Source of the DNA: a bacterium
GTDB taxonomy: Bacteria > Patescibacteriota > CPR2 > UBA1875 > JAJYID01
Length of the DNA: 24,922 bases
Assembly: GCA_021823605.1 (NCBI GenBank)
Contig: JAKANV010000001.1
Coordinates: forward strand, 1 to 24,922
Reading direction: 5' to 3'
Each line of letters starts with the position of its first letter. Positions within the stretch are counted from its first letter, which is position 1. Below are positions 7,343 through 23,990 of this stretch, in pieces. The position numbers were made by a program, and so were the translations under genes. The notes below the pieces were generated by a model that worked only from the letters and a program-made list of their open reading frames with translations, was not told the origin of the DNA and ran no database searches.

Positions 7343-8146
7343 CTATAAGAAAAGTTTAACATAAAAACTTACCAAATGCTCTCCCAAAAAAAGACCGACA
7401 AATGTACCAATGACTAAGAAGGGGCCAAAGGGTATTTTCGAGCCCAGCTTCTTCTTTCCGGAAATGAGCGTAAAGACTCCGACGAGCGCCCCCAAGAAAA
7501 ATGCAGCATAAAGAGCAACCAAAGTACCCTGCCAGCCTAAAATTAATCCCATCAGCGCTACTAGTTTGATGTCTCCGCCCCCCATCCACTTTCCGTTTGA
7601 TATGGTAGCGAGTGTGAAGAAAAATCCTCCGGCAAGCAAGCCAGATAAAAGATGGTCAATTAAGTAGCTAATATTTCCAGTAAGAACAACATTTGTTAAA
7701 ACGTAAATCAAAGCCACGGCTAGCGCAGTGTAAATAATCTCGTCCGGGATAATCCGATGTTTTAAATCGTAAACAAAAATAGCAATCAAAGATGAAATAA
7801 AAAACAGCCAAAAAACAATATTGATAAAGTTCAAAGCTGTAAAACGACCAAATTGAAGAAAAAAATAACCAGTTGCTGCAAAGATTAATCCGGTTGATAA
7901 CTCAACTAAAGGATATTGGATAGAAATTTCCTTCTTACAGCTCCGGCACTTGCCCCGTAATATTAGCCACGAAATAACGGGAATATTATCAGACCACTTA
8001 ATCTTTTCCTCACAATGCGGACAAAAAGACCGTCCATTCAAACTTTTTCTTTTCTTGGCTTCTAGCCGATAGATAAGGACATTCAAGAAGCTGCCGATAC
8101 ATAGACCGACAAGAAATAAGAAAAACAAAATCAGATAAAAAGACAT
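7343..8146 (-). CDS. pilD: Prepilin peptidase / N-methyltransferase (A24)
   Basis: GSFLNV, two CxxC motifs (CPHC, CRSC), catalytic Asp motifs VYDLKH and MGGGDIKL, and IPFGPFL. ATG 8146 preferred over TTG 8164. Confidence 0.96.
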   Translation of the reverse strand: MSFYLILFFLFLVGLCIGSFLNVLIYRLEAKKRKSLNGRSFCPHCEEKIKWSDNIPVISWLILRGKCRSCKKEISIQYPLVELSTGLIFAATGYFFLQFGRFTALNFINIVFWLFFISSLIAIFVYDLKHRIIPDEIIYTALAVALIYVLTNVVLTGNISYLIDHLLSGLLAGGFFFTLATISNGKWMGGGDIKLVALMGLILGWQGTLVALYAAFFLGALVGVFTLISGKKKLGSKIPFGPFLVIGTFVGLFLGEHLVSFYVKLFL

Positions 8147-8152
8147 AAGAAT

Positions 8153-8158
8153 ATTATA
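8153..8158 (-). promoter_or_regulatory. -10 box for pilD, probably leaderless
   Basis: Perfect TATAAT (8158-8153), 6 nt, ATG 8146; no SD; no clear -35. Confidence 0.55.
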
Positions 8159-8162
8159 CACC

Positions 8163-8182
8163 AAAAAAAACTCCTTTCGGAG
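8163..8182 (-). terminator. Intrinsic terminator after the LamG pilin pair
   Basis: Minus strand CTCC-GAAA-GGAG followed by T8. A second imperfect hairpin lies at 8195-8221. Confidence 0.65.
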
Positions 8183-8219: not shown

Positions 8220-9038
8220 TTAGAAAGATTTGCTATAATACCTCAAGTTATCCACTGTAACGCCAGTATCAAAATAACCATTACCACAAAAAATACCTGA
8301 GCCAATTCTCACATAGCCAATCTTAGGTACTATATAAGATGAAAGATCACTAACAGTAGCACCACTACCATTAACGGGAGATTGACATTGTCCATCCAAA
8401 CATATTTTAGTATCGACCGATTGGCTAAAAGCAACATGATGCCACTTTGTATCCGATATATAAAGATTACTATATAGGGACTGTGTAGTCGCCGCTCCAA
8501 TGTTTACTGCCAATCTATAAATACCATTAGTACTACTGGCAGGTCTATAAATATAAACTGTAACGGCACTTGTACAACCACTGCCAGAATCACGACCAGC
8601 GGCAACAAGAGTGCCACCAGTCGTCTCATTTATATCTGGCAGTTTAAACCAAAAAGAAATGGTGCTAAGAGGCCCTATTGATGAACTGAGTGCTTGTGAA
8701 CTTGAAGAAGCATTCGCTATTTTTATTGCATTACCGCCATCAAATCCTGCATCAGAAGTGCCCGCACCAAATGCGAAGCTAGTGTTACCCATTTCGTCCG
8801 CAGCTGGACTTGAGCCCTCATCAAACTTCCATCCAACTATTTGAGAATCCTTCATACTAGAATCTATACCATGATCAAAGTTGATTGCCTGAGTCATCCT
8901 CGCCTGCTCTCTAGCTAAAATAATTGCTCCTACGATCAACATAGCAAGGACTGCCAATATCGCCATTACTACAAGTATTTCTATAAGGGTAAAGCCTTGC
9001 TCGGCCTTTTTCTTCAACTTTTTCGGTAATGTTTTCAT
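8220..9038 (-). CDS. Type IV pilin with C-terminal LamG/concanavalin A-like head (copy B)
   Basis: QG|FTLIEILVVMAILAVL motif. The head has GWKFDE, TISFWFK, DTKWHHVAFS and VDNLRYY, typical of Laminin_G_3 domains. Confidence 0.88.
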   Translation of the reverse strand: MKTLPKKLKKKAEQGFTLIEILVVMAILAVLAMLIVGAIILAREQARMTQAINFDHGIDSSMKDSQIVGWKFDEGSSPAADEMGNTSFAFGAGTSDAGFDGGNAIKIANASSSSQALSSSIGPLSTISFWFKLPDINETTGGTLVAAGRDSGSGCTSAVTVYIYRPASSTNGIYRLAVNIGAATTQSLYSNLYISDTKWHHVAFSQSVDTKICLDGQCQSPVNGSGATVSDLSSYIVPKIGYVRIGSGIFCGNGYFDTGVTVDNLRYYSKSF

Positions 9039-9047
9039 TACATAATA

Positions 9048-9076
9048 ATGATAATGTATGCAATCTCTTTTTACAA
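9048..9076 (-). promoter_or_regulatory. Candidate sigma70 promoter for LamG pilin B
   Basis: TTGTAA (9076-9071), 17 nt, TATCAT (9053-9048), 9 nt, ATG 9038; no SD. Confidence 0.45.
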
Positions 9077-9112
9077 TATAACGATAACTTTCGAACTTAT
9101 ACCTTTATCGCT

Positions 9113-9886
9113 TCAAAATGCTTTGCTATAGAGGGCCAAATCATCAATAATAATACCCTGAGTAAACTGTCCCCAACCACAACCTCCGGCGCCGTTAAAA
9201 TCAAGGGCATAGGCAGTCTTAATGGTACTAGCTGGATCAGGGGTAGTAAACGTTTTACAATTTCCATCTAAACATATCTTCGTATCCACATTTTTACTCA
9301 TCGTATAGTAGTGCCAGCTGTCATCCTTTACGATAAAGCTACTATCCGACCATATATTCGTGGGAGAACTTGGACAAAATTTGTTTCCATAACTCTGTGG
9401 AGATGTTGTCCCAAAGTTACCAGCAGCATCTTCAGTGACAGAGCTACTATCTAGAGTGGATATAAACGTTCCATCTAAGTCAGTGGTATTCGGAAGCCTG
9501 AACCAAAAAGCGATCGTTTTGACCGGACCGACAGGGTTAGACAGACTACTTACAACCCAACCAGTACCAGAAAACTGATAGGCTGAGGTTCCATTCATGC
9601 CTTGTACCCAAGTGCCTACCTTTCCGGGACTTTCTACTGTAATATTATTGTTTCCCCAATCATCTTTGGTGGTGCTCCCACTATTTTCATTAAAACTCCA
9701 ATGACCAAGAGTTGAGTCTTTCATACTAGACTCGACACCATGAGCAAAGTTGGTAGCCTGAGTCATTCTTGCCTGTTCTCTGGCTAAAATAATCGCTCCC
9801 ACAATCAACATAGCGAGTACTGCCAATATCGCCATCACTACGAGTATTTCTATAAGGGTAAAGCCTTGTTTGCCTAACTTCTTCAT
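9113..9886 (-). CDS. Type IV pilin with C-terminal LamG/concanavalin A-like head (copy A)
   Basis: QG|FTLIEILVVMAILAVL motif. The head has GHWSFNENSGSTTKD, TIAFWFR, DDSWHYYTM and IDDLALYSKAF. Confidence 0.88.
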   Translation of the reverse strand: MKKLGKQGFTLIEILVVMAILAVLAMLIVGAIILAREQARMTQATNFAHGVESSMKDSTLGHWSFNENSGSTTKDDWGNNNITVESPGKVGTWVQGMNGTSAYQFSGTGWVVSSLSNPVGPVKTIAFWFRLPNTTDLDGTFISTLDSSSVTEDAAGNFGTTSPQSYGNKFCPSSPTNIWSDSSFIVKDDSWHYYTMSKNVDTKICLDGNCKTFTTPDPASTIKTAYALDFNGAGGCGWGQFTQGIIIDDLALYSKAF

Positions 9887-9920
9887 TTTTTTCTTAAATC
9901 ACCTTAAAACTCTTAAGATA

Positions 9921-9949
9921 ATAATATAATTAACCTTTACAAAAGTAAA
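9921..9949 (-). promoter_or_regulatory. Candidate sigma70 promoter for LamG pilin A
   Basis: TTTACT (9949-9944), 17 nt, TATTAT (9926-9921); SD-like AAGGTGA at 9905-9899. The region is AT-rich, so a chance match is possible. Confidence 0.4.
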
Positions 9950-9974
9950 CTTTAAAATGCTTATACATTTGATG

Positions 9975-10003
9975 TTGTTGAAAGGTACTAAAAAATCTAT
10001 AAT
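9975..10003 (+). promoter_or_regulatory. sigma70 promoter for the O-antigen-ligase-like gene, probably leaderless
   Basis: TTGTTG (9975-9980), 17 nt, TATAAT (9998-10003), 6 nt, ATG 10010; no SD. Confidence 0.6.
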
Positions 10004-10009
10004 GGTTAC

Positions 10010-12442
10010 ATGAACAAGCAGGAGATAGCTAAGCATAAATCTCTACCCATTGATCTAGTGGGTATTTTTAGAAAAAGTTTCCTATCAGGCGGTGAAAACC
10101 TTTGTCTGACCATCATTAAAATAGGGATTTATTTAATACTTACCTTACCCCTAACTGCATCATACGGGTTTCTCATGCTGAATATGGAAGCCAAAGTATA
10201 TCTTTTTAGAATTCTCGTTGAAATCATGGCAATAGCATGGACTTGGTTAATCCTTTTCTACCCCGAGTGGAGGAAACCTTGGCGGAAAATCCATGGGATC
10301 AGTAAGCTGATTTTAGTATTCATCGCTCTTTTCATGCTGTCTGCACTCCTTTCCACCATAATTAGTGTAGACCCTTCGTTTAGTTTCTTTTCGGATGTGC
10401 AGAGAGGAATGGGATTTTTAACCGTCTCTCATGTCTTCTTATTTTTTGCCATACTTTTCACGGTTTTTAACGCTAAATCATTTATCAGTCTTTTTAAATT
10501 TTCCGTCATAGTTTCTCTAGGTGTCTCTTTCTTTGCAATAATCCAAAATAACTTTGCCGTTTTGATGAATACACAAAGGATTCAGGGTACCATGGATTAC
10601 CCGAGCTTTTTTGCCGCATATCTGATATTCAATATCTTTTTTGCCTTCTTGGTAGCATCTGATTCAAAAAGAAAACAAGAAAGACTTATCTACTACCTCA
10701 TCTCAGCTATCCTCATAATAACACTGGTTTTTGCGGGTATTAGGGGGGCTATGGTGGGCTTTGCCGCCGGCATACTTGTCTCTTTTCTCTTAGTTTTAAT
10801 TTCCACAAGATTTAATCCGTTTCAAAGAAAGAATCTCCGAAAACCATATGTCCTCGGAATTATTTTATTGGCTATTCTATCTGTAGGTTTAATTGTTTTC
10901 ACCTATACAAACAAAAACTCAGTTTGGGTTACAAAAACTCCCCTGAAATACCTATCAAAAATAACATTGTCTGAAGGAAGCAGACGTATTACCGTATGGA
11001 AACTTTCGTATAATGCCTTCAAGGAAAAGCCAATCATCGGGTGGGGAATAGAGAATTTCGATGCTGCATACGCCAAATATTATGACCCTAAACTTTATGA
11101 AGGGGAGGGCCTTTCAAGGCAAAAATTTGACAAAGCCCATAATGTTTTGGTTGATACCTCTGTTACTCAGGGTCTACTTGGAGTTATTTCATATATTGGA
11201 ATATTTGGACTGTCAGCATTCGGACTATATCGATCTGTCAAAGATAGAAAAGTAAAAGAAAGGTTAACAAGAAGCAAGACCTTAAGGTCGCCTCCTTTAG
11301 CAGCATCTTTCCTAGTTGGGTTACTCGTTGCTTATCTCGTACAAAACCTTTTTGTCTTCGATACAGTCACTTCCTACTTTCTCTTCTTTCTTTTATTAGT
11401 TTACATACTCAAGATAAATATCGCTTCTGAAAGTACAATAAAGAAAACAAAAATTCAGGCTCAAAGTAAAAAAACGGTAGATAGCTTCCCACTTGATGCA
11501 AAATATTGGAAATTACCTTTATTCATAATTTTCTCTCTACCGATAATCTACTTCATTTGGTTATTTAATTTGTCATTCGGTTACTCCTCGCACCTTTTTG
11601 TTAGAGCTGTCCAAATCAGCAATCAAGGCGATTATAAGAAGGCCCTGCCCTTATACGAAAAATCTCTAAAAACATCCCACATTGAAGGAGCCGAAATAGA
11701 TGATAACCTCATAAATGTAACGACTAATGTCTTTAAAAAAGGAAGCTCTGACCTCGCTTGGCAGTATTTCTACTTGGTTGAAATGAGGGAAAAAGATAAA
11801 ATCAGCTCCAAAATATACCCGTATCTATATCTAGCCAATATTTATGAAACCGCATCCGACAAAAACCCTAAATATCTCGACCCGGCTGTCAAATACTATG
11901 AAGATGCAATTTTGCTGTCTCCAAAACAACTATTTATCTATTACGACTTAGCCAATTTGTATGCAGATAAGCATTTGTACAATAAAGCTTACACAACCCT
12001 AGACAGAGTCAGATCCTTTGACCCCGAGATAAATCCGGAAACCAACAGACATTACTTTGAAACAGCGCTTCGTGAAGAAAATAAGGAGCGAGCATTCAAA
12101 GAACTTGAGAATATGAGAGCTAAAATATCGAGAAATAATAGTATAGCTGACAAGAGTGATGCCTTCATCCAAGTTTTGTTAGAAAGTTCAAGAGGAGCAG
12201 TAGTCTATGACAGGACTGATCTTTTCCGAGACATAATTGACAATAATTATCATAAATACCTAGAAGCTTACGCAAACTCTGAGGGTTCAAAGACTGACAC
12301 GCTTTTTAAAATAGTACTCATAAACATTAACTTGAAAGAAAAAGAACAGGCCAAGAAAATAGCGAAAAGAATAGTCGTTTCTGACCCCGAATCCAAAGCA
12401 GATATCGATGGAGTTCTAAAAGCGATAGATTCTCTTAAATAA
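10010..12442 (+). CDS. O-antigen ligase family (Wzy_C) membrane protein with C-terminal TPRs; candidate pilin oligosaccharyltransferase
   Basis: About 12 TM segments; RIQGTMDYPSFFAAYL, IRGA, RITVWK...KPIIGWGIENF and AHNVLVD...GLLG motifs; TPR-like helices (KALPLYEKSL, AVKYYEDAILLSP, YYDLANLY). Confidence 0.88.
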   Translation: MNKQEIAKHKSLPIDLVGIFRKSFLSGGENLCLTIIKIGIYLILTLPLTASYGFLMLNMEAKVYLFRILVEIMAIAWTWLILFYPEWRKPWRKIHGISKLILVFIALFMLSALLSTIISVDPSFSFFSDVQRGMGFLTVSHVFLFFAILFTVFNAKSFISLFKFSVIVSLGVSFFAIIQNNFAVLMNTQRIQGTMDYPSFFAAYLIFNIFFAFLVASDSKRKQERLIYYLISAILIITLVFAGIRGAMVGFAAGILVSFLLVLISTRFNPFQRKNLRKPYVLGIILLAILSVGLIVFTYTNKNSVWVTKTPLKYLSKITLSEGSRRITVWKLSYNAFKEKPIIGWGIENFDAAYAKYYDPKLYEGEGLSRQKFDKAHNVLVDTSVTQGLLGVISYIGIFGLSAFGLYRSVKDRKVKERLTRSKTLRSPPLAASFLVGLLVAYLVQNLFVFDTVTSYFLFFLLLVYILKINIASESTIKKTKIQAQSKKTVDSFPLDAKYWKLPLFIIFSLPIIYFIWLFNLSFGYSSHLFVRAVQISNQGDYKKALPLYEKSLKTSHIEGAEIDDNLINVTTNVFKKGSSDLAWQYFYLVEMREKDKISSKIYPYLYLANIYETASDKNPKYLDPAVKYYEDAILLSPKQLFIYYDLANLYADKHLYNKAYTTLDRVRSFDPEINPETNRHYFETALREENKERAFKELENMRAKISRNNSIADKSDAFIQVLLESSRGAVVYDRTDLFRDIIDNNYHKYLEAYANSEGSKTDTLFKIVLININLKEKEQAKKIAKRIVVSDPESKADIDGVLKAIDSLK

Positions 12443-12465
12443 GCACCGACAAATCATAATATTTT

Positions 12466-12474
12466 TGGTATAAT
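12466..12474 (+). promoter_or_regulatory. Extended -10 promoter for the sugar transferase operon
   Basis: TG-G-TATAAT at 12466-12474; GAGG SD 7 nt before ATG 12505. Confidence 0.5.
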
Positions 12475-12504
12475 GTTTAGTACTGTTTATGATGAGGATT
12501 TTAT

Positions 12505-13857
12505 ATGGGCTTCAAAAAACTTTTGCTATTTGTCTGTGACGCTTTTGTTTTCTATGGAAGCCTGGCATTATTTATTACCATAAGATATCCCAACGACTTT
12601 CTGTATAACTGGAACTTGCACTATAAGATTTTCTCCATTCTATTTTTGATTCTTATCTTCAGCTTTTATGCTGTCGATCTTTACGAACTTGACTACTGGA
12701 AGAGTAAAGCCGACCTTTTCTCTAAAACTTTAAAAGTGGTGACTATAAACTTTGCTCTTGCCATAACACTTTTTTACTTCTTCCGCACACCTATCGCCCC
12801 TAAGACAAACCTATTTCTTTTCACCTTTCTTTTCACCTTTCTTTTCCTGCCAGCCAGGCTTTTCATGGCAAGATTTTTAAGGCTAACCCTACCATCAAAA
12901 AAGGCTCTTTTCCTGGGCAATGACAAATATTTTCAAAAAATATCTGATTTTCTCCGTGAAAATCCCCATGCAGGATATAAGATTGTTGCATTTGCACCTA
13001 CTGAAAAAATAAAATCTGCTGATAAAAAGATAAAGATAATATCTGACCATGAGAAACTTTTTAGCTTTTTGCAAAAAAGCAGTGTCAAAGTCGTCATCTC
13101 AAGCCTTAACCCCCACTTAACTAAAGAAAGTGTCAGCAGTCTTTATAACAGCATCCCCCTAAACATAGAGTTCCTATCCATCAACAAGTTCTATGAAAGT
13201 ATCAACACTAGAGTTAGTTTAGATACACTCGACGAATTCTGGTTCTTGGAGAACCTGGCAAAGGGTGAGAAAAAGATTCAAGGAATGATAAAGAGAGGCT
13301 TTGACTTCTTTGTTAGTCTAGCACTCGGAATTATTTGTCTACCCTTTATCCCATTTATAATTATCGCTATCAAGCTGACAAGCTCGGGCTCCATCCTATT
13401 CAAACAAACCCGGGTTGGGCTAGTTGGGAATAATTTCCAAATCATCAAGTTCCGGACAATGGTTAAAGATGCTGAAAAAAATGGGCCACAATGGGCAACA
13501 CAGAATGATCCTAGGATTACAAAAATCGGAAAATTCCTTCGTAAAACTCATCTGGATGAAATACCTCAACTTTATAATGTAATCATTGGGAATATGTCAC
13601 TTGTCGGCCCCCGACCTGAAAGACCAGAGTTTGAGGAAAAACTTTCAAAAGAAATTCCTTTTTATTCTATTCGGCACTTAGTGAAGCCGGGCATAACAGG
13701 CATGACCCAAATCCGCTCATTTTATGAGTCAACCACTGAGGACGCCAAAGATAAACTTGAGTATGAGCTTTTCTACATAAAAAACAGAAACTTCTTCATG
13801 GATTTGAAAATTATACTAAAGACTATCCATCAGATATTTAAGGCGTCAGGTAGGTAG
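12505..13857 (+). CDS. Polyprenyl-phosphate hexose-1-phosphate transferase (WbaP/WcaJ-like initiating sugar transferase)
   Basis: Four N-terminal TMs, CoA_binding_3-like middle region, and Bac_transf motifs KRGFD, IIKFRTM, DPRITKIGKFLRKTHLDEIPQLYNV and MSLVGPRPERP. Confidence 0.94.
   Translation: MGFKKLLLFVCDAFVFYGSLALFITIRYPNDFLYNWNLHYKIFSILFLILIFSFYAVDLYELDYWKSKADLFSKTLKVVTINFALAITLFYFFRTPIAPKTNLFLFTFLFTFLFLPARLFMARFLRLTLPSKKALFLGNDKYFQKISDFLRENPHAGYKIVAFAPTEKIKSADKKIKIISDHEKLFSFLQKSSVKVVISSLNPHLTKESVSSLYNSIPLNIEFLSINKFYESINTRVSLDTLDEFWFLENLAKGEKKIQGMIKRGFDFFVSLALGIICLPFIPFIIIAIKLTSSGSILFKQTRVGLVGNNFQIIKFRTMVKDAEKNGPQWATQNDPRITKIGKFLRKTHLDEIPQLYNVIIGNMSLVGPRPERPEFEEKLSKEIPFYSIRHLVKPGITGMTQIRSFYESTTEDAKDKLEYELFYIKNRNFFMDLKIILKTIHQIFKASGR
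12814..12846 (+). repeat. In-frame 12-bp tandem repeat (TTTCTTTTCACC x2.75)
   Basis: 12814-12825, 12826-12837, partial 12838-12846; encodes FLFT-FLFT-FLF in a TM helix. Confidence 0.75.
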
Positions 13858-13858
13858 C

Positions 13859-15157
13859 ATGGAAGCAGCAGTAGCAAAAATCAGAAGCATATTCCTCGGA
13901 ACACAAGAAAAAAGGATCATCGCAGAAAATACAGCCTGGCTCACTGTCGCTGAAGCAATAACCCGACTGTCAAAGTTTGCATTGATAGTTTACGCAACTA
14001 GAATCTTGGGGCCAACCGGCTTCGGCCAGTTCTCCTTTGCCCTTTCATTTGTGATGATATTTACCGTCTTCGCAGATTTAGGACTTTCGCAAATAATTTC
14101 AAGGGAGATTTCGCAGAGAAAAAAGGGTGAGCTAGAATTCAATAATATTTTAAGCTTAAAGATTATTATTTCGTTTATAGTACTTCTTGCCGTGGTTATA
14201 ATTGCACAGATCACTATTAGCGATTTGTTGGTAAGACAATCTGTTTTAATCTTGCTGGTTTTTATGTTCACTAATACTATTAGTGACTTTCTATTTTCCT
14301 TTTTCCAGGCGAGAAAAAATATGAGATATGAGGCTTATACTAGGATTATCCAGGCTGTAGCCAGCACAATCCTAGGTTTCTTATTATTGAGTCAGACTCA
14401 AACAACAGTCGGATTGACCATAAGCTATGCTCTGGCAGGTTTGATATCTCTAATTTATATTTCGATACTTTATTTCTTAAAAAGAAGGAAATCTTCTAGT
14501 GTAAAAACCCGATGGCTTCAATTCCAAACCTGGAAAAAATATCTTATGATGTCTTGGCCACTTATCTTAACTGGTATATTTGCAATGATATATAACGAAA
14601 TAGACTCTGTGATGATGGGTTATTATGGTCAAATAAAAGAAGTGGGTCTTTATAACGCCAGTTACAGAGCGATGTGGGTTATTCTTGTCCCCTGCTTGTT
14701 AATATATAGGACTTTTTTCCCAATTATAAATGAGAATTATTTTAAGTCGACAGAGACTTATAAAAGAATATGGAAATATTATTTGCGAATAAGTCTATTT
14801 ATGGCTGTTCCCACACTACTTTTCGGAATTTTGTTGGCAAATCAAATAATAATCTTTGTTTTCGGGCCAGATTACTCAGGAGCGGTAACCTCATTCCAAG
14901 TTCTCATCGGTGTCGCCGGCTTAACCCTTCTGTCTTTCCCCTTTAACCAAGGCTTGATTGCTGCAAATAAACAAAAAAAGGTATTTTTCGCTACTTTTTG
15001 GGGAGCTTTGATTAACATAATACTGAATCTTGTTTTGATACCCCGGTACTCTCTAAATGGTGCCGCTTTAGCCACTCTTATAGCTGTTTCAGTAGTCCTT
15101 TTGTTACAAGGTGCGTATTATTTAAAGATCGACAAAGTGCAAAGAGGCTTAGTATGA
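13859..15157 (+). CDS. wzx: Wzx/RfbX-type oligosaccharide flippase (MOP superfamily)
   Basis: About 12 TMs; RILGPTGFGQFSFALSF, DLGL, EIDSVMMG, VGLYNASYR and LIPRYSLNGAALAT motifs. Confidence 0.9.
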   Translation: MEAAVAKIRSIFLGTQEKRIIAENTAWLTVAEAITRLSKFALIVYATRILGPTGFGQFSFALSFVMIFTVFADLGLSQIISREISQRKKGELEFNNILSLKIIISFIVLLAVVIIAQITISDLLVRQSVLILLVFMFTNTISDFLFSFFQARKNMRYEAYTRIIQAVASTILGFLLLSQTQTTVGLTISYALAGLISLIYISILYFLKRRKSSSVKTRWLQFQTWKKYLMMSWPLILTGIFAMIYNEIDSVMMGYYGQIKEVGLYNASYRAMWVILVPCLLIYRTFFPIINENYFKSTETYKRIWKYYLRISLFMAVPTLLFGILLANQIIIFVFGPDYSGAVTSFQVLIGVAGLTLLSFPFNQGLIAANKQKKVFFATFWGALINIILNLVLIPRYSLNGAALATLIAVSVVLLLQGAYYLKIDKVQRGLV

Positions 15158-15705
15158 AGCAACTAAAAATTCTAGAGATTGGGTCCGGCAAGAATTTCTA
15201 CAAAGGCAAGAAAACTGAAGATGTGGTTCATCTTGATGCTGTTAAGTTACAACATGTTGAAATAGTCCATAATCTTAATAACTTCCCCTATCCTTTTGAG
15301 AAGGATACTTTTAATGTTGTTATTGCAAATCACGTACTGGAACACCTAGACCATTTCTTAGAAACTATGAATGAAATCCATAGAATACTTAGACCGGGAG
15401 GAACTGTCAAAATAAAGGTACCTTACTTTGGCTCACCGAATGCTTTTACTGACCCAACACATAAAAAATTTTTCACCAAAGAATCTTTTGATTATTGGGA
15501 CAAAACGACAGAATATGGATTTGAATATAACCATCAAGTTAATAAGTCGTTTTACCTGATTGAGAAAAAATTGATATTTGCGAAGGGATTGAAATATAGC
15601 CTTGTCAGTTGGATAGAAAACAAGAAACCCGCTTTCTATGAGGTCCACATTTCAAGGATAATCCCGGCAGACGAAATATACTTTGAGTTGGGAAAAGATA
15701 AATGA
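15154..15705 (+). CDS. Class I SAM-dependent methyltransferase (Methyltransf_11-like), of the type common in glycan clusters
   Basis: Motif I ILEIGSGK, PYPFEKDTFNVVIANHVLEHL, EIHRILRPGG, DPTH; ATGA-coupled at both ends. Confidence 0.88.
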   Translation: MKQLKILEIGSGKNFYKGKKTEDVVHLDAVKLQHVEIVHNLNNFPYPFEKDTFNVVIANHVLEHLDHFLETMNEIHRILRPGGTVKIKVPYFGSPNAFTDPTHKKFFTKESFDYWDKTTEYGFEYNHQVNKSFYLIEKKLIFAKGLKYSLVSWIENKKPAFYEVHISRIIPADEIYFELGKDK

Positions 15706-16811
15706 AAATAGCAGTAAATTTAATACCTTATACAACATATCAAGGGATTGAGACATATACAAGAAATCTCATTTTAAGCCTGCAGAAAACGCCCGATATT
15801 GAGATAATTCTGATAAAACACAGCAAATCGCCTAAGTTTCTAGATCTTTCTGGGTCGAATATCAAAAATTTTACTATTGCAATAAAGAAAAGAAAAAGGG
15901 GCAAATTGGCAATATTGCAACAAACAAAGCTTTTTTTTATTTTAAAAAAGACAAATCCTGATTTTCTGCTCTGCACATCGCCCGCTGCTCCTATTTTTTA
16001 TAGAAAATCAATTATCACCATACATGATTGCGCATACGATAGATTTCCGGAGTTTACTTCTCTAATTAGCAAAGTCTACTTTAAGGTAATGTACTATAAT
16101 GCAAAGATTTTTTCACGGATGATTCTGACAGATTCAGAATTCTCAAAATCTGAGCTGATTAAACGCTATCATATTAAACCTGAAAAAATTAAGGTTGTCT
16201 ATTTAGCACTTCCTAAATTACCTGCTCAAAAAAATAATGCTTTGAATCATTTTAAACTAAAAAACAAAAAGTACTTTATTTATGTAGGGAATACTCGGCC
16301 GAGAAAAAACATCGGGGGGTTATTGAGAAGTTTTAAAATTTTCTTATCTTCACATCCATCTTACAAGCTTGTCATTGCCGGTCGCATAGACGATAGATTT
16401 GTGAACTTGAAAGCTATTATCAAAGAACTCGGGTTAAATAATAACGTTATTTTGACCGATTTTATAAAAGACAGTGAAAAGGTTAATTTAATAAAACACT
16501 CTGCTGCTCACACATTCCCCTCATACTATGAAGGTTTTGGGTTGCCTATCTTGGAAGCACAAAGCTTGGGGGTTCCTGTCCTCACATCAAATACTTCTTC
16601 TATCCCTGAAGTTGCCGGAAAAGGCGCCCTCTACATCGACCCCTGCAATGTCCAAGATATCGCAAGGGGCATGGAACAGATTGTGACTGATACCAAACTA
16701 AGAAAGGAACTGATAGAAGAGGGTCATAAAAATGTAAAGAGGTTTTCTTGGGAGAAAACGGCTAAAGAGTTGGCTGATATACTTGAGGAGCTCAAAAATG
16801 AAGATTCTTGA
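15702..16811 (+). CDS. GT4 glycosyltransferase (MtfB/WbdA-like, mannosyltransferase-type subgroup)
   Basis: TIHD, FIYVGNTRPRKNI and FPSYYEGFGLPILEAQSLGVPVLTSNTSSIPEVAG. Sugar specificity cannot be determined by eye. Confidence 0.9.
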   Translation: MKIAVNLIPYTTYQGIETYTRNLILSLQKTPDIEIILIKHSKSPKFLDLSGSNIKNFTIAIKKRKRGKLAILQQTKLFFILKKTNPDFLLCTSPAAPIFYRKSIITIHDCAYDRFPEFTSLISKVYFKVMYYNAKIFSRMILTDSEFSKSELIKRYHIKPEKIKVVYLALPKLPAQKNNALNHFKLKNKKYFIYVGNTRPRKNIGGLLRSFKIFLSSHPSYKLVIAGRIDDRFVNLKAIIKELGLNNNVILTDFIKDSEKVNLIKHSAAHTFPSYYEGFGLPILEAQSLGVPVLTSNTSSIPEVAGKGALYIDPCNVQDIARGMEQIVTDTKLRKELIEEGHKNVKRFSWEKTAKELADILEELKNEDS

Positions 16812-17904
16812 GATAACAAAACTATATTCTCCCTGGATAGGCGGCGTGGAAAAGGTTGTCCAGGATATTGCTGAGGGGATAAACGGCAAAAACGGCCTGA
16901 AGATTGAGGTTTTATGCTGCCAGCCGAAAGGCAGAGGCGAATCTAAGAAGATAAATGGGGTAACAATCCATAAATCTTCAAGCTTGGGCATCGTAAAAAG
17001 CATGCCTGTTTCTTTTTCTTTCTTTACTCAGTTTAAAAAACTTACCAAGGGCTTTGACACGCTCGCTATTCATCAACCATTCCCTTTGGCCGATCTTGCA
17101 GTATTCATTTTCAGGCCAAAAAAGAAGATAATCGTCCATTATCACTTTGACGTGTACAAACAAAAAATTTTGGGGCCCTTTCTTAAACCCTTCGCACTAT
17201 ATACGCTCAAAAAGGCGCAAAATATTATAGTATCCAACCCAAATGTAATCAAAAACTCACCTTATTTGAAGAAATTTAAGGGTAAATGCGTTATCATCCC
17301 CTTCGGTGTAGATGCTAAGAATATTCAGTCATCGACCGATGAGAAAAAAGTATCTGAACTAAAAAAACAATATGGTAATTTCGTCCTTTTCGTTGGTCGT
17401 CTCAGTTATTACAAAGGCATTCAATATTTAATTGAGGCAATGAAAGACATTTCAGCGAATCTCCTGATTGTCGGCTTGGGGCAAGAAGAGAAAAGCTTAA
17501 AGACACTCACTCAAGAGCTTGGGATTGGGAAAAGAGTCTTTTTCTTGGATAAACAGTCAAATGAAGACTTAGGTAACTACTACAAAGCCGCTTCAGCCTT
17601 CGCCCTACCGTCAATATACAAAAGCGAGGCATTTGGCATCGTTTTAATAGAATCGATGGCCTGTGGGACACCCCTGGTGACGACAGAGATAGGTACGGGG
17701 ACCAGTTGGGTAAACAAAGATGGTACAACCGGTTTTGTAGTCCCTCCAAAGGATTCTCTCGCTCTTTCTCAAGCTTTAAAAAAAATATTAGAAAATGATA
17801 ACTTAAGAAAAGATTTCTCTGAAAATTGTCTAAAAATGACGGCTTCAGTCTTCACAATTTCAAAGTTCAAGAAAGAGATTGTCGGCGCTTATACTCAAGA
17901 CTAA
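16798..17904 (+). CDS. GT4 glycosyltransferase (WfcD-like subgroup)
   Basis: YSPWIGGVEKVV, FVGRLSYYKG and LPSIYKSEAFGIVLIESMACGTP. ATG 16798 has GAGGAG 7 nt upstream; the ORF track uses TTG 16783. Confidence 0.9.
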   Translation: MKILEITKLYSPWIGGVEKVVQDIAEGINGKNGLKIEVLCCQPKGRGESKKINGVTIHKSSSLGIVKSMPVSFSFFTQFKKLTKGFDTLAIHQPFPLADLAVFIFRPKKKIIVHYHFDVYKQKILGPFLKPFALYTLKKAQNIIVSNPNVIKNSPYLKKFKGKCVIIPFGVDAKNIQSSTDEKKVSELKKQYGNFVLFVGRLSYYKGIQYLIEAMKDISANLLIVGLGQEEKSLKTLTQELGIGKRVFFLDKQSNEDLGNYYKAASAFALPSIYKSEAFGIVLIESMACGTPLVTTEIGTGTSWVNKDGTTGFVVPPKDSLALSQALKKILENDNLRKDFSENCLKMTASVFTISKFKKEIVGAYTQD

Positions 17905-17953
17905 AAAATAACCCCTCATTTCTTTTTTATCTCCCGAGAAAATTACTTTTCAA

Positions 17954-17980
17954 GAAGGTTGAGAATGAACTGCAACCTTC
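17954..17980. terminator. Probable bidirectional intrinsic terminator between the convergent GT4 and pilA genes
   Basis: Perfect 8-bp inverted repeat GAAGGTTG (17954-17961) / CAACCTTC (17973-17980), 11-nt loop, with A/T-rich flanks. Confidence 0.55.
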
Positions 17981-18003
17981 CTGGAAAAACAGATTTTCTT
18001 GGA

Positions 18004-18384
18004 TTAAGGACCTGAAATAGTTCCTATGCTACCACTACAGTTGCTATCAAATATAGTGAGAGTATAACCAGTCGTTGAAGAGTTAACGCTACCACCACCA
18101 TTAGCACAGTCAGCTGCACCAGTGTTTATACTAACTCCGGTCACTGTTCCTGTTGCAGCAGTAAATGCAGTTCCAGATGTTATAGAAGGATAGTTTCTGT
18201 TTCTGGAATAGTAAGCTTCCATCCCAGCCTGCATTGCCTTTGCGTTGGTTCTGTTTGATGTCTCCTTAGCAGTGTTTCTTGCTACCAAGATGGCACCGAT
18301 GATAAGAGCTGCAAGTACGGCAATGATTGCCATAACAACAACTACTTCGATAAGTGTAAAACCTTGTCTATTTAACTTTTTCAT
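18004..18384 (-). CDS. pilA: Probable major type IVa pilin
   Basis: MKKLNRQG|FTLIEVVVVMAIIAVL motif; 118-aa mature protein; 'EAYY...YP' motif; one Cys pair; strong SD AAGGAGGTG before ATG 18384; directly follows pilC. Assignment as the major pilin is inferred from size and expression signals. Confidence 0.85.
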   Translation of the reverse strand: MKKLNRQGFTLIEVVVVMAIIAVLAALIIGAILVARNTAKETSNRTNAKAMQAGMEAYYSRNRNYPSITSGTAFTAATGTVTGVSINTGAADCANGGGSVNSSTTGYTLTIFDSNCSGSIGTISGP

Positions 18385-18433
18385 TTTCACCTCCTTCCCC
18401 CCTTTTACAGGGTTTTTCTTTTGTTATGTTAAT

Positions 18434-18462
18434 ATTGAACCAATATGCTTATGTAAAGTCAA
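18434..18462 (-). promoter_or_regulatory. sigma70 promoter for pilA
   Basis: TTGACT (18462-18457), 17 nt ending TGG, TTCAAT (18439-18434). Confidence 0.5.
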
Positions 18463-18471
18463 TTCCTTTTT

Positions 18472-19695
18472 TTACTTTTTCGGCGTGAAGTTTTGGAAGT
18501 TCTGAATACTGTAAACCGGTAATAAAATACAGATTATTATCGTACCGACGATACCGCCCATTATCACAATCATTATCGGCTCCAGGAGCGACTGCAAACT
18601 CTTCGTCATATTATCAAGCTCATCATCATAGTAATCCGCCATATTTTGTAGCATCGTATCCAACTCACCGGTACTTTCACCGACTGCTATCATTTGTGAG
18701 ACCATTATCGGGAAAAGCTCCTCTTCTTTCAGGGAAGCCGAGAGTGCTTTACCCTGTTTTACCTTATCTTTTACTCTCGTAATTGAATCCGAATATATTA
18801 CATTCGGCATGGCTTCTGAAACTATTTGTAACGCGTCAAGAATAGGAACACCCGACGCGATTAAGCTGGCAAGAGTACGAGTAAAGATAGATAAATATGA
18901 AAGAGCTACAAATTTACCAACCAACGGAACGTTTATCTTTATCCTATGCCAGATGTATTTTCCCGTCTCATTTGTCCTTGTATATATTCTCGCGCTTATA
19001 AATGCTGCTACCGCTACTAACAAAACCAGCAAGAAATATCTAGCTAGAAAATGGCTTGTTGCAATCAAAAATCTCGTAGGCAGCGGGAGGGTGGAGTTAA
19101 AACTTTTATACAAACTTTCCATTTGCGGCAGAATGAAAATTATAAGACCAGCAACGACACCTATAACAACTACTGATAGAAAGGCAGGATAAATAAAAAC
19201 AGTTTTTATCTTCTTTAGGGTTTTATACGTTTTTTCTGTTTGATCTGCCATATGAACCAAAACTTCATCAATCTTACCACTGGCCTCACCGGCAGCAATA
19301 ATGCTAATGTCGGTTTTGTTAAAAGTATCGGGAAAAGCACCAAAAGCAGAAGACATGCTTCCGCCTGCTTCTATGTCACGAGTCATCTGCTCTATCATCT
19401 TTTTTACATTTTTCCGGGAAGTCTGTTCAAGAAGTGTAGATAGAGCTTGAGATATCGGCAATCCAGCATGTGTCATAGTCGCAAGTTGCCTAATAAAGAA
19501 CACTTTATCCTTTCTTGAAACTTTATTGCCGAATGAAATGCCACCCAAAGAGCTCTTTGAAGCTTCCTTAATATCAATAGGAACGATGCCTTTTGAAATC
19601 AAAAGTGTAGATGCAGCCTGTTCACTCTCCGCTTCTATTATGCCCTGTGCTGCCGCACCATCTTTACCTCTTGCTTTGTAGCTAAACTCTCTCAT
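18472..19695 (-). CDS. pilC: Type IV pilus inner-membrane platform protein (GspF/PilC family)
   Basis: FSYKARGKDG, FIRQLATMTHAGLPI, AGEASGKIDEVL, YPAF, VGESTGELD and LLEPIMI motifs. Confidence 0.95.
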   Translation of the reverse strand: MREFSYKARGKDGAAAQGIIEAESEQAASTLLISKGIVPIDIKEASKSSLGGISFGNKVSRKDKVFFIRQLATMTHAGLPISQALSTLLEQTSRKNVKKMIEQMTRDIEAGGSMSSAFGAFPDTFNKTDISIIAAGEASGKIDEVLVHMADQTEKTYKTLKKIKTVFIYPAFLSVVVIGVVAGLIIFILPQMESLYKSFNSTLPLPTRFLIATSHFLARYFLLVLLVAVAAFISARIYTRTNETGKYIWHRIKINVPLVGKFVALSYLSIFTRTLASLIASGVPILDALQIVSEAMPNVIYSDSITRVKDKVKQGKALSASLKEEELFPIMVSQMIAVGESTGELDTMLQNMADYYDDELDNMTKSLQSLLEPIMIVIMGGIVGTIIICILLPVYSIQNFQNFTPKK

Positions 19696-19698
19696 TTT

Positions 19699-20772
19699 TT
19701 ATCCGTGAAGAAGCCTTTCAAGCTCTTTTATATCAATTGCATAACCTTTAGCCTCATCGAGCGTGATTCTGCCGGTTTTAATAAGACTTGCGAGCGTTCT
19801 ATCCATTGCCTGCATTCCTTCTGAAGCGCCGGTCTGAATAACTGCCTCAAGCTGGTGAGTTTTCTGCTCACGAATGATATTTCTGACGGCCGGAGTAACA
19901 ACTAGAATCTCAGCCGCCGCAATACGTCCTCCGCCAATTGACGGGATAAGACGCTGAGAGACTATACCCTGTAAAATATTTGAAAGCTGAACTCTTATCT
20001 GTTGCTGCTGATGCGGCGGAAATACGTCTATCATTCTGTCTACTGACTGAGCAGCATTGTTTGTATGTAAAGTAGCGAAAACCAGATGCCCAGTTTCAGC
20101 AATGGTAATAGCCGCTGCGATAGTTTCAAGGTCACGCATTTCACCGATTAAAACTACGTCAGGATCTTCACGGAGAACACTCCTTAAAGCAGCCGCGAAA
20201 GAACGTGTATCATAGTGCACCTCACGTTGCTCAACAATAGATTTTTTATGAGAGTGGGTATACTCAATCGGATCCTCTACTGTAATAATATGGCACGCGC
20301 GTTCGCTATTTATCTTATCCACCATAGCTGCCAAAGTCGTAGATTTACCTGAACCGGTAGGACCCGTCACAAGCACTAAACCTCTCGGATATTCGGTAAA
20401 CTTATCCACTATCTTTGGCATTCCAAGCTGAGTTAGATTTCTAATGGCAACCGGTATCAAACGAAGTGCAAGCCCAACATTACCCTTTTGATGATATGCA
20501 TTTGCCCTAAATCTAGCCAAATCACCATAAGTAAAGGAGAAGTCCACTTCTTTATCGCGTTCTAATATATCTTTTTGTACATCATCAAGAATAGAAAGAG
20601 TCAAATCGTGTACATCTTTATCAGTTAAAGCCCTGGCACCTTCTACTGGGACAAGAGCACCGTCAACCCTAAGCATCGGCGGCACACCAACTGTTAGATG
20701 AAGGTCACTTGCGTCTTTCTTTATAACTTCCTCTAGGAAGTTTTCAATTTTTAGTTTTGCTGTTTCTGCCAT
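19699..20772 (-). CDS. pilT: Type IV pilus retraction ATPase
   Basis: ASDLHL, Walker A GPTGSGKSTT, EDPIE, Walker B LREDPDVVLIGEMRD, HLVFATLHT, and AVRNIIRE (AIRNLIRE motif). Confidence 0.97.
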   Translation of the reverse strand: MAETAKLKIENFLEEVIKKDASDLHLTVGVPPMLRVDGALVPVEGARALTDKDVHDLTLSILDDVQKDILERDKEVDFSFTYGDLARFRANAYHQKGNVGLALRLIPVAIRNLTQLGMPKIVDKFTEYPRGLVLVTGPTGSGKSTTLAAMVDKINSERACHIITVEDPIEYTHSHKKSIVEQREVHYDTRSFAAALRSVLREDPDVVLIGEMRDLETIAAAITIAETGHLVFATLHTNNAAQSVDRMIDVFPPHQQQQIRVQLSNILQGIVSQRLIPSIGGGRIAAAEILVVTPAVRNIIREQKTHQLEAVIQTGASEGMQAMDRTLASLIKTGRITLDEAKGYAIDIKELERLLHG

Positions 20773-20796
20773 GTCTTTGGCCCTCCTTCTACTATT

Positions 20797-20825
20797 ATTC
20801 TATGGAAATACAGTAAATTTTACAA
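20797..20825 (-). promoter_or_regulatory. Internal sigma70 promoter for pilT-pilC
   Basis: TTGTAA (20825-20820), 17 nt, TAGAAT (20802-20797); SD AAGGAGG before ATG 20772. Confidence 0.6.
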
Positions 20826-20838
20826 TGCTTTTGCTCTA

Positions 20839-22608: not shown

Positions 22609-22610
22609 GG

Positions 22611-22850
22611 CTAGAAGTTAGCAAATGGATTATCTCTTCCTATATTATCCATTGGGGGTGAGCCATAATCTTTTCTCTTCTGCAGTTTGTTAATCGTGTC
22701 TGTATCAATCTGACCGGTAAACTCTATGGTTGCTTTATTCTGAGTAGTTGTCGGTTGGGATTTTGGCATTAAGCCTTTTGAAACAAAGTATGCAGCTAGA
22801 ATGATAACCAGCGCACAAATGACTACTACGATGATATCTGTTTTCTTCAT
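22611..22850 (-). CDS. Small single-TM protein in the PilP position, ending in GRDNPF
   Basis: 79 aa from ATG 22850 (GGAGG SD; 1 nt after the pilO stop): basic N-terminus, TM helix without lipobox Cys, low-complexity linker, C-terminal GRDNPFANF. Confidence 0.8.
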   Translation of the reverse strand: MKKTDIIVVVICALVIILAAYFVSKGLMPKSQPTTTQNKATIEFTGQIDTDTINKLQKRKDYGSPPMDNIGRDNPFANF

Positions 22851-22851
22851 T

Positions 22852-23439
22852 TTACTTTGCCTCCTCCGGTTGGCCACTATTCTCGCTTCTATAATAAGCC
22901 GTATAACTTAAGCTCACTGTAAAACTGTTTTGGCTGTTTATTTGGAAACTATTTAAGTGCAAATACCTTAAAGTGTTTTCAGACTCACTAAGAAGTCTTT
23001 TTAGGGTCGCATAGTCAGGAAAAGTAACACTGATATTAGAACCCAGCGTACTGATACCTTCTGTCCCTGCAGCAGCACTAGTACCAGCACCCTCGCTAAC
23101 AGAATTGCCTGTGCCATTGCCTGTGCCGCCTATGCTTGTGGCCAATCCATTTAACTGGATAAATAAATCTCCAACTTCCTTTTTGGTCGGTATTGCTCTA
23201 TACACAACTCGTGACTGTTCGCGAAGTTCATCTTCTTTGACTTTAAACTCTTTGAGTTTTGCCAGTTTTTGTTCGGCTATGCTAAGTTCCTCTTTGTTTT
23301 CTTTAAGATCTTTGTCGACTTTTCCGATGCTCTTAAATGATGGCACGATAATAAAAATCAAGGCCAAAATTACTACCAACGAGGTAACAGCAATTACCCC
23401 TCCAAACCAATAATACTTATCAAGTTTTTTATCTACCAT
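22852..23439 (-). CDS. pilO: Type IV pilus alignment protein PilO
   Basis: TM, coiled coil, 'AIPTKKEVGDLFIQL', ferredoxin-like C-terminus ('LRYLHLNSFQI'); follows pilN. Confidence 0.85.
   Translation of the reverse strand: MVDKKLDKYYWFGGVIAVTSLVVILALIFIIVPSFKSIGKVDKDLKENKEELSIAEQKLAKLKEFKVKEDELREQSRVVYRAIPTKKEVGDLFIQLNGLATSIGGTGNGTGNSVSEGAGTSAAAGTEGISTLGSNISVTFPDYATLKRLLSESENTLRYLHLNSFQINSQNSFTVSLSYTAYYRSENSGQPEEAK
23104..23127. repeat. In-frame 12-bp tandem duplication (ATTGCCTGTGCC x2)
   Basis: 23104-23115 = 23116-23127; encodes GTGN-GTGN in a Gly-rich loop of PilO. Confidence 0.65.
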
Positions 23440-23990
23440 AATATTCCTTGTTCCATCTCAAAACTTATACTAAAATCTATCGCATCTCCACTAGCGCTAT
23501 AGCTGGTTACACTAACATTTTTGAACAAGTTTCTACCGGTTTTTTCATCTTTATAGCTATCTAATGTATTCATCAACCTGGGGATAGAATATAGCTGCCT
23601 ACCCTTTATTTGTGCAGTAAATTTGTTGTCAGTTTGGCTTAAACTCAAAAACTGTACATCGTTTGGGGTGACCTTTTCCAAAACCGGAAAGAATCTCGAC
23701 CATTTTGGTTCGCTCTGCTCAATGTTATTTATCGCCTTTGTGCCCTGCTCAATATTAACAACCATATCTTCAATATCTTTGTATCCTTTCAGCTCATCAT
23801 TGGTACTGGCAATTTTCTTCTTTGTTTGGTCTAGCAGATAAATCTTAGACCATTTATATCCTTGCAGAACAAGTATAAATGCAACCATACCCGCTAAAAT
23901 AATTATAGCTGTAATAGTCACCATGAAGTTTCTTCTCTTTGTTTTTAGCTTATCCAGCCTTACATCTGGTGCAAGATTTATCTTTGTCAT
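23433..23990 (-). CDS. pilN: Type IV pilus alignment protein PilN
   Basis: N-terminal INLAP (INLLP PilM-binding motif), TM, coiled coil, and 'WSRFFPVLEKVTPNDVQF'. Confidence 0.88.
   Translation of the reverse strand: MTKINLAPDVRLDKLKTKRRNFMVTITAIIILAGMVAFILVLQGYKWSKIYLLDQTKKKIASTNDELKGYKDIEDMVVNIEQGTKAINNIEQSEPKWSRFFPVLEKVTPNDVQFLSLSQTDNKFTAQIKGRQLYSIPRLMNTLDSYKDEKTGRNLFKNVSVTSYSASGDAIDFSISFEMEQGILW

Follow-up and report, generated by a model that had tools for sequence, protein, structure and literature searches.

The window, i.e. the whole stretch of DNA analysed here, is an entire 24.9-kb contig (C39) of a metagenome-assembled genome (MAG; G000) and carries, in the midst of a type IV pilus locus, a self-contained island of six plus-strand genes for a lipid-linked oligosaccharide pathway (10010-17904). 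As the first-pass annotation had proposed, the island stands between pilA and the other pilin genes. We put at even chances the explanation that it serves en bloc O-glycosylation of type IV pilins, and perhaps of other surface proteins. The pathway part, a Wzx-dependent route to a lipid-linked, methylated short glycan predicted from the gene sequences, is well supported because of the family membership of the proteins and the coupling of their genes. Pilin as the acceptor is suggested by the position of the island and by precedent; beside the protein nature and identity of the acceptor, we infer the size of the glycan and the topology of the tetratricopeptide repeat (TPR) tail of the last enzyme. 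The MAG comprises 677 kb in 95 contigs, is 86% complete and has a GC content of 41%. Homologues of the island proteins all come from Patescibacteria MAGs, and the host is a Patescibacteria-like, ultra-small, uncultured bacterium from mine drainage. The island consists of the following genes:

10010-12442, plus strand: protein of 810 amino acids with a Wzy_C domain and a C-terminal TPR tail (Pfam Wzy_C and weak TPR matches), candidate O-oligosaccharyltransferase (O-OTase) or ligase
12505-13857, plus strand: initiating polyprenyl-phosphate hexose-1-phosphate transferase, WbaP/WcaJ/CpsE-like, 450 amino acids (Bac_transf and CoA_binding_3)
13859-15157, plus strand: Wzx-type flippase, 432 amino acids (Polysacc_synt, 134 bits)
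15154-15705, plus strand: small class I S-adenosylmethionine (SAM) methyltransferase, 183 amino acids (Methyltransf_11/23)
15702-16811, plus strand: family 4 glycosyltransferase (GT4), 369 amino acids (Glycos_transf_1, 130 bits)
16798-17904 (revised start), plus strand: second GT4 glycosyltransferase (Glycos_transf_1, 159 bits)

Pfam and NCBIfam assigned the six genes to the families first noted, at the same coordinates save for one start. The initiating phosphoglycosyl transferase (PGT) matches Bac_transf with 225 bits and TIGR03025 ('EPS polyprenyl glycosylphosphotransferase') with 392 bits against a cut-off of 296, its highest-scoring equivalog model being WcaJ. The methyltransferase is intact and has SAM motif I, ILEIGSG, at residues 6-12. 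From 12505 onward the junctions are tight: TAG-C-ATG occupies 13855-13861, neighbouring genes overlap by ATGA at 15154 and again at 15702, and the last overlap measures 14 nt, which bears out the translational coupling claimed for this part of the island. For the second GT4 gene, ATG at 16798 appears a likelier start than TTG at 16783 given in the list of open reading frames (ORFs), because GAGGAG lies upstream. The GC content of the island is 0.369 versus 0.40 in each flank, with the minimum in the methyltransferase gene (0.348) and the first GT4 gene, both about 0.35; O-antigen clusters and those for S-layer glycans are likewise reported to be low in GC (PMC2943079).

In the proposed mechanism, the WbaP/WcaJ-like transferase would load the lipid carrier with hexose-1-phosphate, for which GalU probably supplies the sugar as UDP-glucose. 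The two GT4 enzymes would lengthen the chain, the small methyltransferase would cap or modify a sugar, and Wzx would flip the undecaprenyl-pyrophosphate-linked product across the membrane to its outer face. There the Wzy_C core (R245, R326 and H377, with an outward-facing loop at 301-378) would attach the chain to Ser/Thr (or Tyr) residues of pilins anchored in the membrane, and the TPR tail, on the extracytoplasmic side, would help to hold the protein substrate. A length of about three sugars, and roles in phage shielding or mimicry, as suggested at first reading, are conjectural. The island PGT is the only Bac_transf gene of the genome and the island Wzx its only Wzx, the other Polysacc_synt match being MurJ. 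Neither Wzz, nor a second polymerase, nor export or nucleotide-sugar genes lie within the cassette. Regarding nucleotide sugars, the first-pass annotation was right for the cassette, but the genome encodes GalU (over the model cut-off), GlmS and epimerases elsewhere; since GalU is present, UDP-glucose is available for the hexose-1-phosphate initiator. The absence of Wzz extends further: neither Wzz (PF02706) or another polysaccharide co-polymerase (PCP) nor a tyrosine kinase was found in this 86%-complete genome.

The 810-residue protein is an enzyme of the Wzy_C/WaaL fold. Its Wzy_C domain (residues 231-396) scores 66.1 bits against a Pfam gathering cut-off of 31.7 and is followed by weak Pfam TPR matches at residues 537-795; the Wzy_C model matches all 79 family members. 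In two alignments of homologues (A1 and A2; 26 and 79 sequences), R132, G135, H141, P341, G344, G346 and G388 are invariant, and R245, R326, H377, N378 and D451 show no or almost no variation, R245 and R326 being invariant in A1 and conserved in at least 90% of A2, and H377 in at least 90%. The motif H377-N-x9-G388-x2-G391, the ligase-type (WaaL/PilO-type) His motif, is present in 106 of 120 homologues. R245, R326 and H377 have the spacing of the catalytic triads of Escherichia coli WaaL (R215/R288/H338) and Neisseria PglL (R224/R298/H349), and P341-x2-G344-x-G346 corresponds to P313/G316/G318 of PglL (PMC3643930).

The only solved structure matched by sequence was Cupriavidus metallidurans WaaL (7TPG; phmmer, E 7.5e-4), with the triad aligned; this search of the PDB was made with the membrane domain, as the full-length profile drew mainly TPR proteins. 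An AlphaFold2 model of residues 1-530 (pLDDT 87.4, pTM 0.89) retrieved 7TPG alone from the PDB in a Foldseek search (E 6.7e-8, probability 1.00, TM-scores 0.54/0.68). Among Swiss-Prot entries, the lowest E-values in the fold search belonged to two Acinetobacter baylyi O-OTases (the general and the ComP-specific one), next in rank being TuaE, HI_0874, three WaaLs (TM-score by hit 0.68-0.72) and ExoQ, while two reviewed O-antigen polymerases ranked lower (E 1.9e-4 and 2.4e-3 versus 6e-8 to 3e-5 for O-OTases and WaaLs). The model contains 13 long helices, twelve of which form the WaaL core; the thirteenth (497-529) comes after a Lys-rich loop and precedes the TPR tail (530-810). Lys and Arg in short loops number 16 inside and 2 outside. 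Given 13 helices and the positive-inside rule, the TPR tail should be extracytoplasmic, on the side of the catalytic loop.

A role as WaaL is excluded because the order of the window genome has no lipid A pathway and hence no lipid A-core acceptor: LpxC was found neither in this 86%-complete genome nor in any genome of the order (28 searched, 19 of which are at least 90% complete). Together with the Patescibacteria homologues, this supports the earlier conjecture of a host from the Candidate Phyla Radiation (CPR) lacking lipid A. Another possibility, which we consider unlikely, is a Wzx/Wzy surface polysaccharide: the Wzy_C-TPR protein would polymerise repeat units, and the polymer would be attached to peptidoglycan by an LCP ligase or released as capsule or exopolysaccharide, the pilus locus being no more to the island than a recombination-prone variable region. 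The window would then hold an ordinary surface-polysaccharide island in an unusual place. A PGT that passes the 'EPS_sugtrans' model, Wzx, glycosyltransferases and Wzy_C make up the standard Wzy-dependent layout, low GC is seen in O-antigen and capsule loci too, two LCP ligases are encoded elsewhere in the genome, and the fold search ranks the putative polymerases TuaE and ExoQ high. Moreover, between carriers with different inner glycosyltransferases, divergence is fastest in Wzy_C-TPR and Wzx, as would be expected of enzymes specific for a repeat unit. Against a polymerase stand the missing Wzz/PCP and tyrosine kinase, the conserved His motif of ligases and O-OTases, and a fold nearer to WaaL and O-OTases than to the reviewed O-antigen polymerases. 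A large extracytoplasmic TPR domain has not been reported for Wzy polymerases in the literature searched; many family members are solitary or form paralogue arrays away from complete glycan clusters, and one cluster combines PGT, Wzx and Wzy_C-TPR with no further glycosyltransferase nearby (L063, see below). Transfer of the ligase or O-OTase type is thus favoured over polymerisation as the last step, because of the His motif, the fold ranking, the extracytoplasmic TPR tail and the lack of a chain-length regulator; it also fits the behaviour of the family (stand-alone genes, paralogue arrays and partnerships with a PGT only). Of the initial proposal that the protein is a pilin O-OTase, the enzymatic half is backed by the triad and the WaaL fold, and the pilin half is read from gene position only.

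The pilus locus surrounding the island lies on the minus strand. To the left of the island are two large pilin genes, pilD, further pilin-like genes, a Xer recombinase gene and comEC; to the right, pilA is followed by the conserved pil genes:

18472-24897, minus strand: pilC, pilT, pilB, a small ORF, pilO, a pilN-like gene and pilM, conserved right flank (Pfam and order-wide synteny)
18004-18390, minus strand: pilA, major pilin, 128 amino acids (N_methyl), candidate acceptor
8220-9886, minus strand: two pilin genes, 257 and 272 amino acids, the second with a Laminin_G_3 head (N_methyl, Laminin_G_3), alternative candidate acceptors
7343-8164, minus strand: pilD prepilin peptidase (A24_N_bact and Peptidase_A24), conserved left anchor of the variable pilin region
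1976-2938: Xer recombinase, kept in all relatives and not specific to the island

The head of PilA is rich in Ser, Thr and Gly, has a Cys95-Cys118 loop and ends in ...GTISGP. As noticed at first reading, the terminal Pro excludes attachment to a C-terminal Ser of the TfpO type; a C-terminal Ser/Thr site of the TfpM type is likewise impossible. Pilins adjoining the Wzy_C-TPR gene end in F or K, and the two large pilins of the window have no full-length counterpart in the relatives sampled.

A PilC probe found the pilus locus in 28 of 28 genomes of the order, and every window protein was mapped onto 20 of these loci, compared gene by gene. All 20 share the gene order pilB-pilT-pilC-pilA (one to three copies)-pilD-pilins-xer-comEC, the pilC-pilD interval being a variable pilin region across the order, with one to three pilA-like copies of differing lengths (loci L091-L110). 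The six-gene block occurs among them only in the window and in a congener, G020. A Wzy_C-TPR protein was detected in three of the 28 genomes (E <= 1e-10) and a Bac_transf gene also in three; G007 and G012, genomes of the same order, contain a PGT or a Wzy_C fragment on contigs too short to show the context. The nearest sampled congener, G021 (PilB 91% and PilC 76% identical to those of the window; 79% and 60% in G020), lacks the island; its pilC, three pilin genes and pilD form an unbroken series on a single contig. The 7.9-kb low-GC block is therefore an accessory island. A search for marks of mobile elements at its borders (direct and inverted repeats, tRNA-like anchors) found only short repeats at chance level and no mobile-element genes.

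In G020 (locus L005) the island has the same site and layout, two family 2 glycosyltransferase (GT2) genes replacing the inner methyltransferase-GT4 pair. Its PGT is 81% and its Wzy_C-TPR protein 46% identical to the window counterparts, the last GT4 is 71% identical, and the Wzy_C-TPR protein is the only Wzy_C enzyme of that genome. A third carrier locus (L007) belongs to a lineage with PilB 61% and PilC 44% identical to those of the window, and its Wzy_C-TPR protein is 36% identical. Here the island is co-directional with the pil genes, giving an uninterrupted pilM...pilC-pilA-[island]-pilin-pilD series: pilC, pilA, a gap of 81 nt, Wzy_C-TPR, PGT, Wzx, a Methyltransf_21 enzyme, two GT4 genes, a gap of 47 nt, a pilin gene and pilD. 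In every carrier the Wzy_C-TPR gene adjoins a pilin gene. The two are divergent in the window, where 123 nt separate them, and in L005, where the distance is 34 nt; in L007 the Wzy_C-TPR gene lies on the same strand as pilA, 81 nt downstream. The four Wzy_C-TPR proteins of carrier loci form one clade, nested in a large family of Patescibacteria proteins, in a quick IQ-TREE phylogeny (SH-like approximate likelihood ratio test, 99), and pilus linkage probably had a single origin followed by inversion. In the proposed reading the island is both accessory and exchangeable, and its site is the variable pilin region between conserved pilC and pilD. Strain-specific pilus glycoforms would follow, because the inner glycosyltransferase and methyltransferase genes differ between carriers.

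Outside this clade the picture is different. Wzy_C proteins of 720-820 amino acids with a TPR tail are common in Patescibacteria MAGs, where they are annotated as 'O-antigen ligase family protein'. Their context was determined for 80 loci of species representatives (24-30% identity), for 39 loci from metagenomes and for three looked up singly. Within 10 kb, pilB, pilC or pilT was found in none of the 80 representative loci, and pilD with a pilin gene in one; the 42 further loci are likewise not linked to pili. A homologous WbaP-like PGT is present in 13 of the 80, often directly adjacent. The initiating transferase is thus the recurring partner of the whole family, and the pilus context is the speciality of one small clade. 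A scan of metagenome contigs with the clade alignment retrieved distant relatives only (24-34% identity), none of them pilus-linked, and no new member of the clade. The synteny with pilA that had been suggested as a check was found at the same site in two other genomes, co-directionally in one of them, but not in the wider family of about 120 loci.

These data bear on a further explanation, which we regard as improbable: an en bloc ligase or O-OTase with an acceptor other than pilin, such as surface proteins in general (e.g., S-layer), a lipid or the cell wall, the position in the pilus locus being incidental. It would suit a family that is widespread in Patescibacteria, not pilus-linked and often paired with a PGT only, as well as the role of the sole Wzy_C enzyme in G020; PglL-type general O-OTases are not tightly linked to their substrates either (PMC12645811), and PilA has no feature specific to island carriers. 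On the other side, the clade has kept its position in the pilus locus across family-level divergence (PilB 61%, PilC 44%), including co-directional tight packing. The two explanations overlap, because general O-OTases such as Neisseria PglL also glycosylate pilin.

Several results weigh against pilin glycosylation, in addition to the contexts of the wider family, the LCP ligases and the high fold ranks of TuaE and ExoQ. The pilus does not need the island, since the locus of G021 is intact without it. Linkage to the pilus counts as one or two events only, given a single origin and three known loci. Wzy_C-TPR is the most diverged island gene between congeners, which fits a polymerase specific for its repeat unit as well. 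PilA heads are equally rich in Ser and Thr (0.20-0.32) in island-free relatives, one of which has the same PilA end, ...IGTISGP, and no pilin feature among Ser/Thr content, Cys loop and C-terminus separates carriers from non-carriers. Among the profile hidden Markov models (HMMs) suggested for checking, Wzy_C (PF04932) matched, while PglL_A (PF15864) and Wzy_C_2 (PF11846) matched neither the window protein (E <= 0.01) nor the 79 family members (E <= 1). A complex prediction for the full-length Wzy_C-TPR protein and the PilA head (residues 36-128), made with our own alignments, gave a score of 0.01, which speaks neither for nor against pilin as the acceptor.

The precedent for the proposed function comes from several systems. 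The O-OTases that are specific for pilin, TfpO, TfpM and PglS, have their genes next to that of their pilin, and 21 out of 31 PglL homologues adjoin pilin genes (PMC12645811, PMC3643930). In TfpO/PilO (Pseudomonas aeruginosa 1244, Acinetobacter), TfpM (Moraxellaceae) and PglS (A. baylyi, acting on ComP), as in the island, a Wzy_C enzyme stands beside a type IV pilin gene, and the glycan is transferred en bloc from a lipid-linked precursor, as proposed here. A catalytic His is common to TfpM (H286), PglL (H349) and the window enzyme (H377). PglS (520-550 amino acids) has one of the two best fold E-values, and both PglS and TfpM accept a reducing-end hexose (PMC12645811, PMC9829042), as the WbaP/WcaJ-like initiator predicts for the island. 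However, the window enzyme, with its 810 amino acids, an extra transmembrane helix and a TPR tail of about 280 residues, is larger than TfpO, TfpM and PglS (420-550 amino acids); TfpO and TfpM (about 420-470 amino acids) have no extra domains (PMC9829042) and use a C-terminal Ser/Thr of the pilin, whereas PilA here ends in Pro. These three systems borrow O-antigen or capsule units, while here the whole glycan pathway sits with the enzyme in the pilus locus, and, unlike their hosts, the cell is monoderm-like and has no lipopolysaccharide (LPS).

PglL/PglO (Neisseria, Burkholderia, Acinetobacter) shares the Arg-Arg-His triad and the P-x2-G-x-G motif with the window enzyme, and the pgl pathway likewise makes a short undecaprenyl-pyrophosphate-linked oligosaccharide with a PGT, few glycosyltransferases and a flippase. 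Pilin is among the substrates of PglL, which modifies internal Ser residues in low-complexity regions (PMC3643930). The differences are the absence of the PglL_A/PglL_B signature and a much larger TPR tail in the window enzyme, the WbaP type of its PGT compared to the PglB/WecA type in pgl, and the arrangement in one island instead of the scattered genes of Neisseria.

WsfB of Paenibacillus alvei and WsaB of Geobacillus stearothermophilus, the latter with the TPR protein WsaA, act in an LPS-free envelope of the Gram-positive type, with the initiators WsfP and WsaP. WsfB, a predicted O-OTase, combines Wzy_C with a C-terminal TPR region and is served by a WbaP-like initiator (PMC2943079), the same architecture as here, compared by description. 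The wsf and S-layer glycan (slg) clusters resemble the island in low GC and overlapping ORFs (PMC2943079), but S-layer glycans are long, exported by ABC transporters and attached to S-layer proteins, while the route of the island is Wzx-dependent and the chain probably short. TfpW of P. aeruginosa Pa5196/PA7 is a polytopic membrane glycosyl- or oligosaccharyltransferase with a large periplasmic C-terminal TPR region, encoded directly downstream of pilA and needed for pilin glycosylation (bioRxiv 10.1101/2020.04.19.049825); being a GT-C enzyme (ArnT/Emb-like) with decaprenyl-phospho-arabinofuranose as donor, it is similar in architecture and not by descent. WaaL (7TPG) has the same triad and fold, but no 13th helix or TPR tail, and its lipid A-core acceptor cannot exist here. 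The window enzyme is thus neither WaaL (no acceptor), nor, judging from its sequence, TfpO/TfpM (pilin C-terminus, size and extra domains) or PglL/PglS (HMM signatures); functionally closest are the pilin-linked O-OTases and the S-layer O-OTases of Gram-positive bacteria.

Cultivated Patescibacteria use type IV pili to find their host cells and to hold on to them. In the literature searched, pilin glycosylation in this phylum has been predicted by software only (PMC12206443), and no transferase has been named. New in the window system are the phylum, the extra helix with a large TPR domain outside, and a whole pathway exchangeable together with the enzyme inside a variable pilin region. A broader proposal, which we put forward tentatively and with some doubt, is that Patescibacteria possess an O-OTase class of their own (Wzy_C core, 13th helix, extracytoplasmic TPR), and that in one clade the enzyme was captured, with its whole pathway, into the hypervariable pilin region as a swappable 'pilus glycotype' island altering the recognition of pili by hosts or phages. 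In these naturally competent cells, recombination between the conserved flanking genes, pilC and pilD, could exchange such islands. The island is a concrete, clonable candidate with a natural presence/absence contrast between close relatives, which makes it directly testable whether, and by what, the pili of CPR bacteria are glycosylated. If the enzyme indeed takes hexose-ended glycans and its TPR tail selects proteins, it would provide a new scaffold for glycoconjugate engineering with O-OTases.

Two promoter-like sites were seen ahead of island genes: TATAAT 6 nt upstream of the Wzy_C-TPR start codon (9998-10012), and a TG-extended TATAAT about 30 nt before the PGT gene, followed by GAGGA (12466-12507). 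Both are consensus matches only, and a scan of 9000-18600 for promoters and terminators gave counts not above those in shuffled sequences. If the sites are real, the Wzy_C-TPR transcript may be leaderless and there would be two transcription units, the enzyme alone and the pathway operon; the site before 12505 would allow the arrangement known for wsfB, which is transcribed alone (PMC2943079). No match to the stretch was found in the RNA runs searched. A search of the island for phase-variable homopolymer tracts found only short runs, normal for such GC.

A second, separate glycan locus is located on contig C50 (locus L004, 167-16914). It encodes a WecA-type initiator, a TagA/TarA-like protein, two methyltransferases, a GT2 and two GT4 enzymes, a protein of 1193 amino acids with methyltransferase-GT2-GT2-GT4 organisation, an epimerase, a PseB/FnlA-like UDP-GlcNAc 4,6-dehydratase and an ABC transporter (ABC2_membrane and ABC_tran with a Wzt_C glycan-binding domain), with glmS adjoining. 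It also contains the second Wzy_C protein of the genome, of 433 amino acids and without TPR, so that the statement that there is no second polymerase gene, correct for the cassette, does not extend to the genome. In ABC-transporter pathways the glycan chain is completed in the cytoplasm and no Wzy polymerase is needed; the C50 protein is therefore hardly a polymerase, and by analogy the Wzy_C proteins of this genome plausibly act as ligases. The locus resembles Geobacillus slg clusters, in which the Wzy_C protein is the O-OTase (PMC2943079), more closely than the island does, and is a candidate pathway for general glycosylation of surface proteins or the cell wall.

Some distant relatives have unusual gene neighbourhoods. 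Tandem arrays of two or three Wzy_C or Wzy_C-TPR paralogues occur in L117 (JGI Ga0172379_10003506) and L118 (a Logan contig of SRR22387871). Upstream of the array, L117 has a separate TPR protein of 230 amino acids, which recalls WsaA/WsaB; its gene order is a near-perfect mirror image of itself, which suggests either a palindrome of the assembly or an inverted duplication. In a Parcubacteria MAG (VMGF01000001.1; L063, 4665-17134), a distant Wzy_C-TPR gene occurs with Wzx, a WbaP-like PGT, NeuB, a UDP-glucose dehydrogenase-like gene and a cytidylyltransferase, and no further glycosyltransferase was found within about 8 kb; this gene content hints at transfer of a very short unit, perhaps with a nonulosonic acid.

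The assembly of the window was compared with single-run contigs. The left junction of the island, between a pilin gene and the Wzy_C gene, is spanned by one such contig (9029-10768), and at the right junction two contigs overlap (17044-18013 and 17975-18349). The island is covered in this way by four runs of one mine-drainage study, whose contigs show 0-1 differences, and none of the single-run contigs from these four runs joins the pilin genes without the island. A chimeric assembly is unlikely, because both junctions are covered by single-run contigs, all from one study. On a 3.1-kb contig of the MAG (C83; locus L104, 6-2550) there is another pilT, with 93% identity to the window gene, together with a truncated pilC, with 72%. 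This contig stems either from a co-binned relative or from a recent paralogue, its identities resembling those of another genus of the family, and some contigs of the MAG may accordingly belong to another population. Within the first GT4 gene, contigs of three runs break at 16526-16743, with loose ends at 16526/16558, and one contig omits 184 nt (16558 to 16743); the probable cause is that a conserved GT4 motif of other organisms, at 90% likeness, cross-matched here, and not a variant of the genome.

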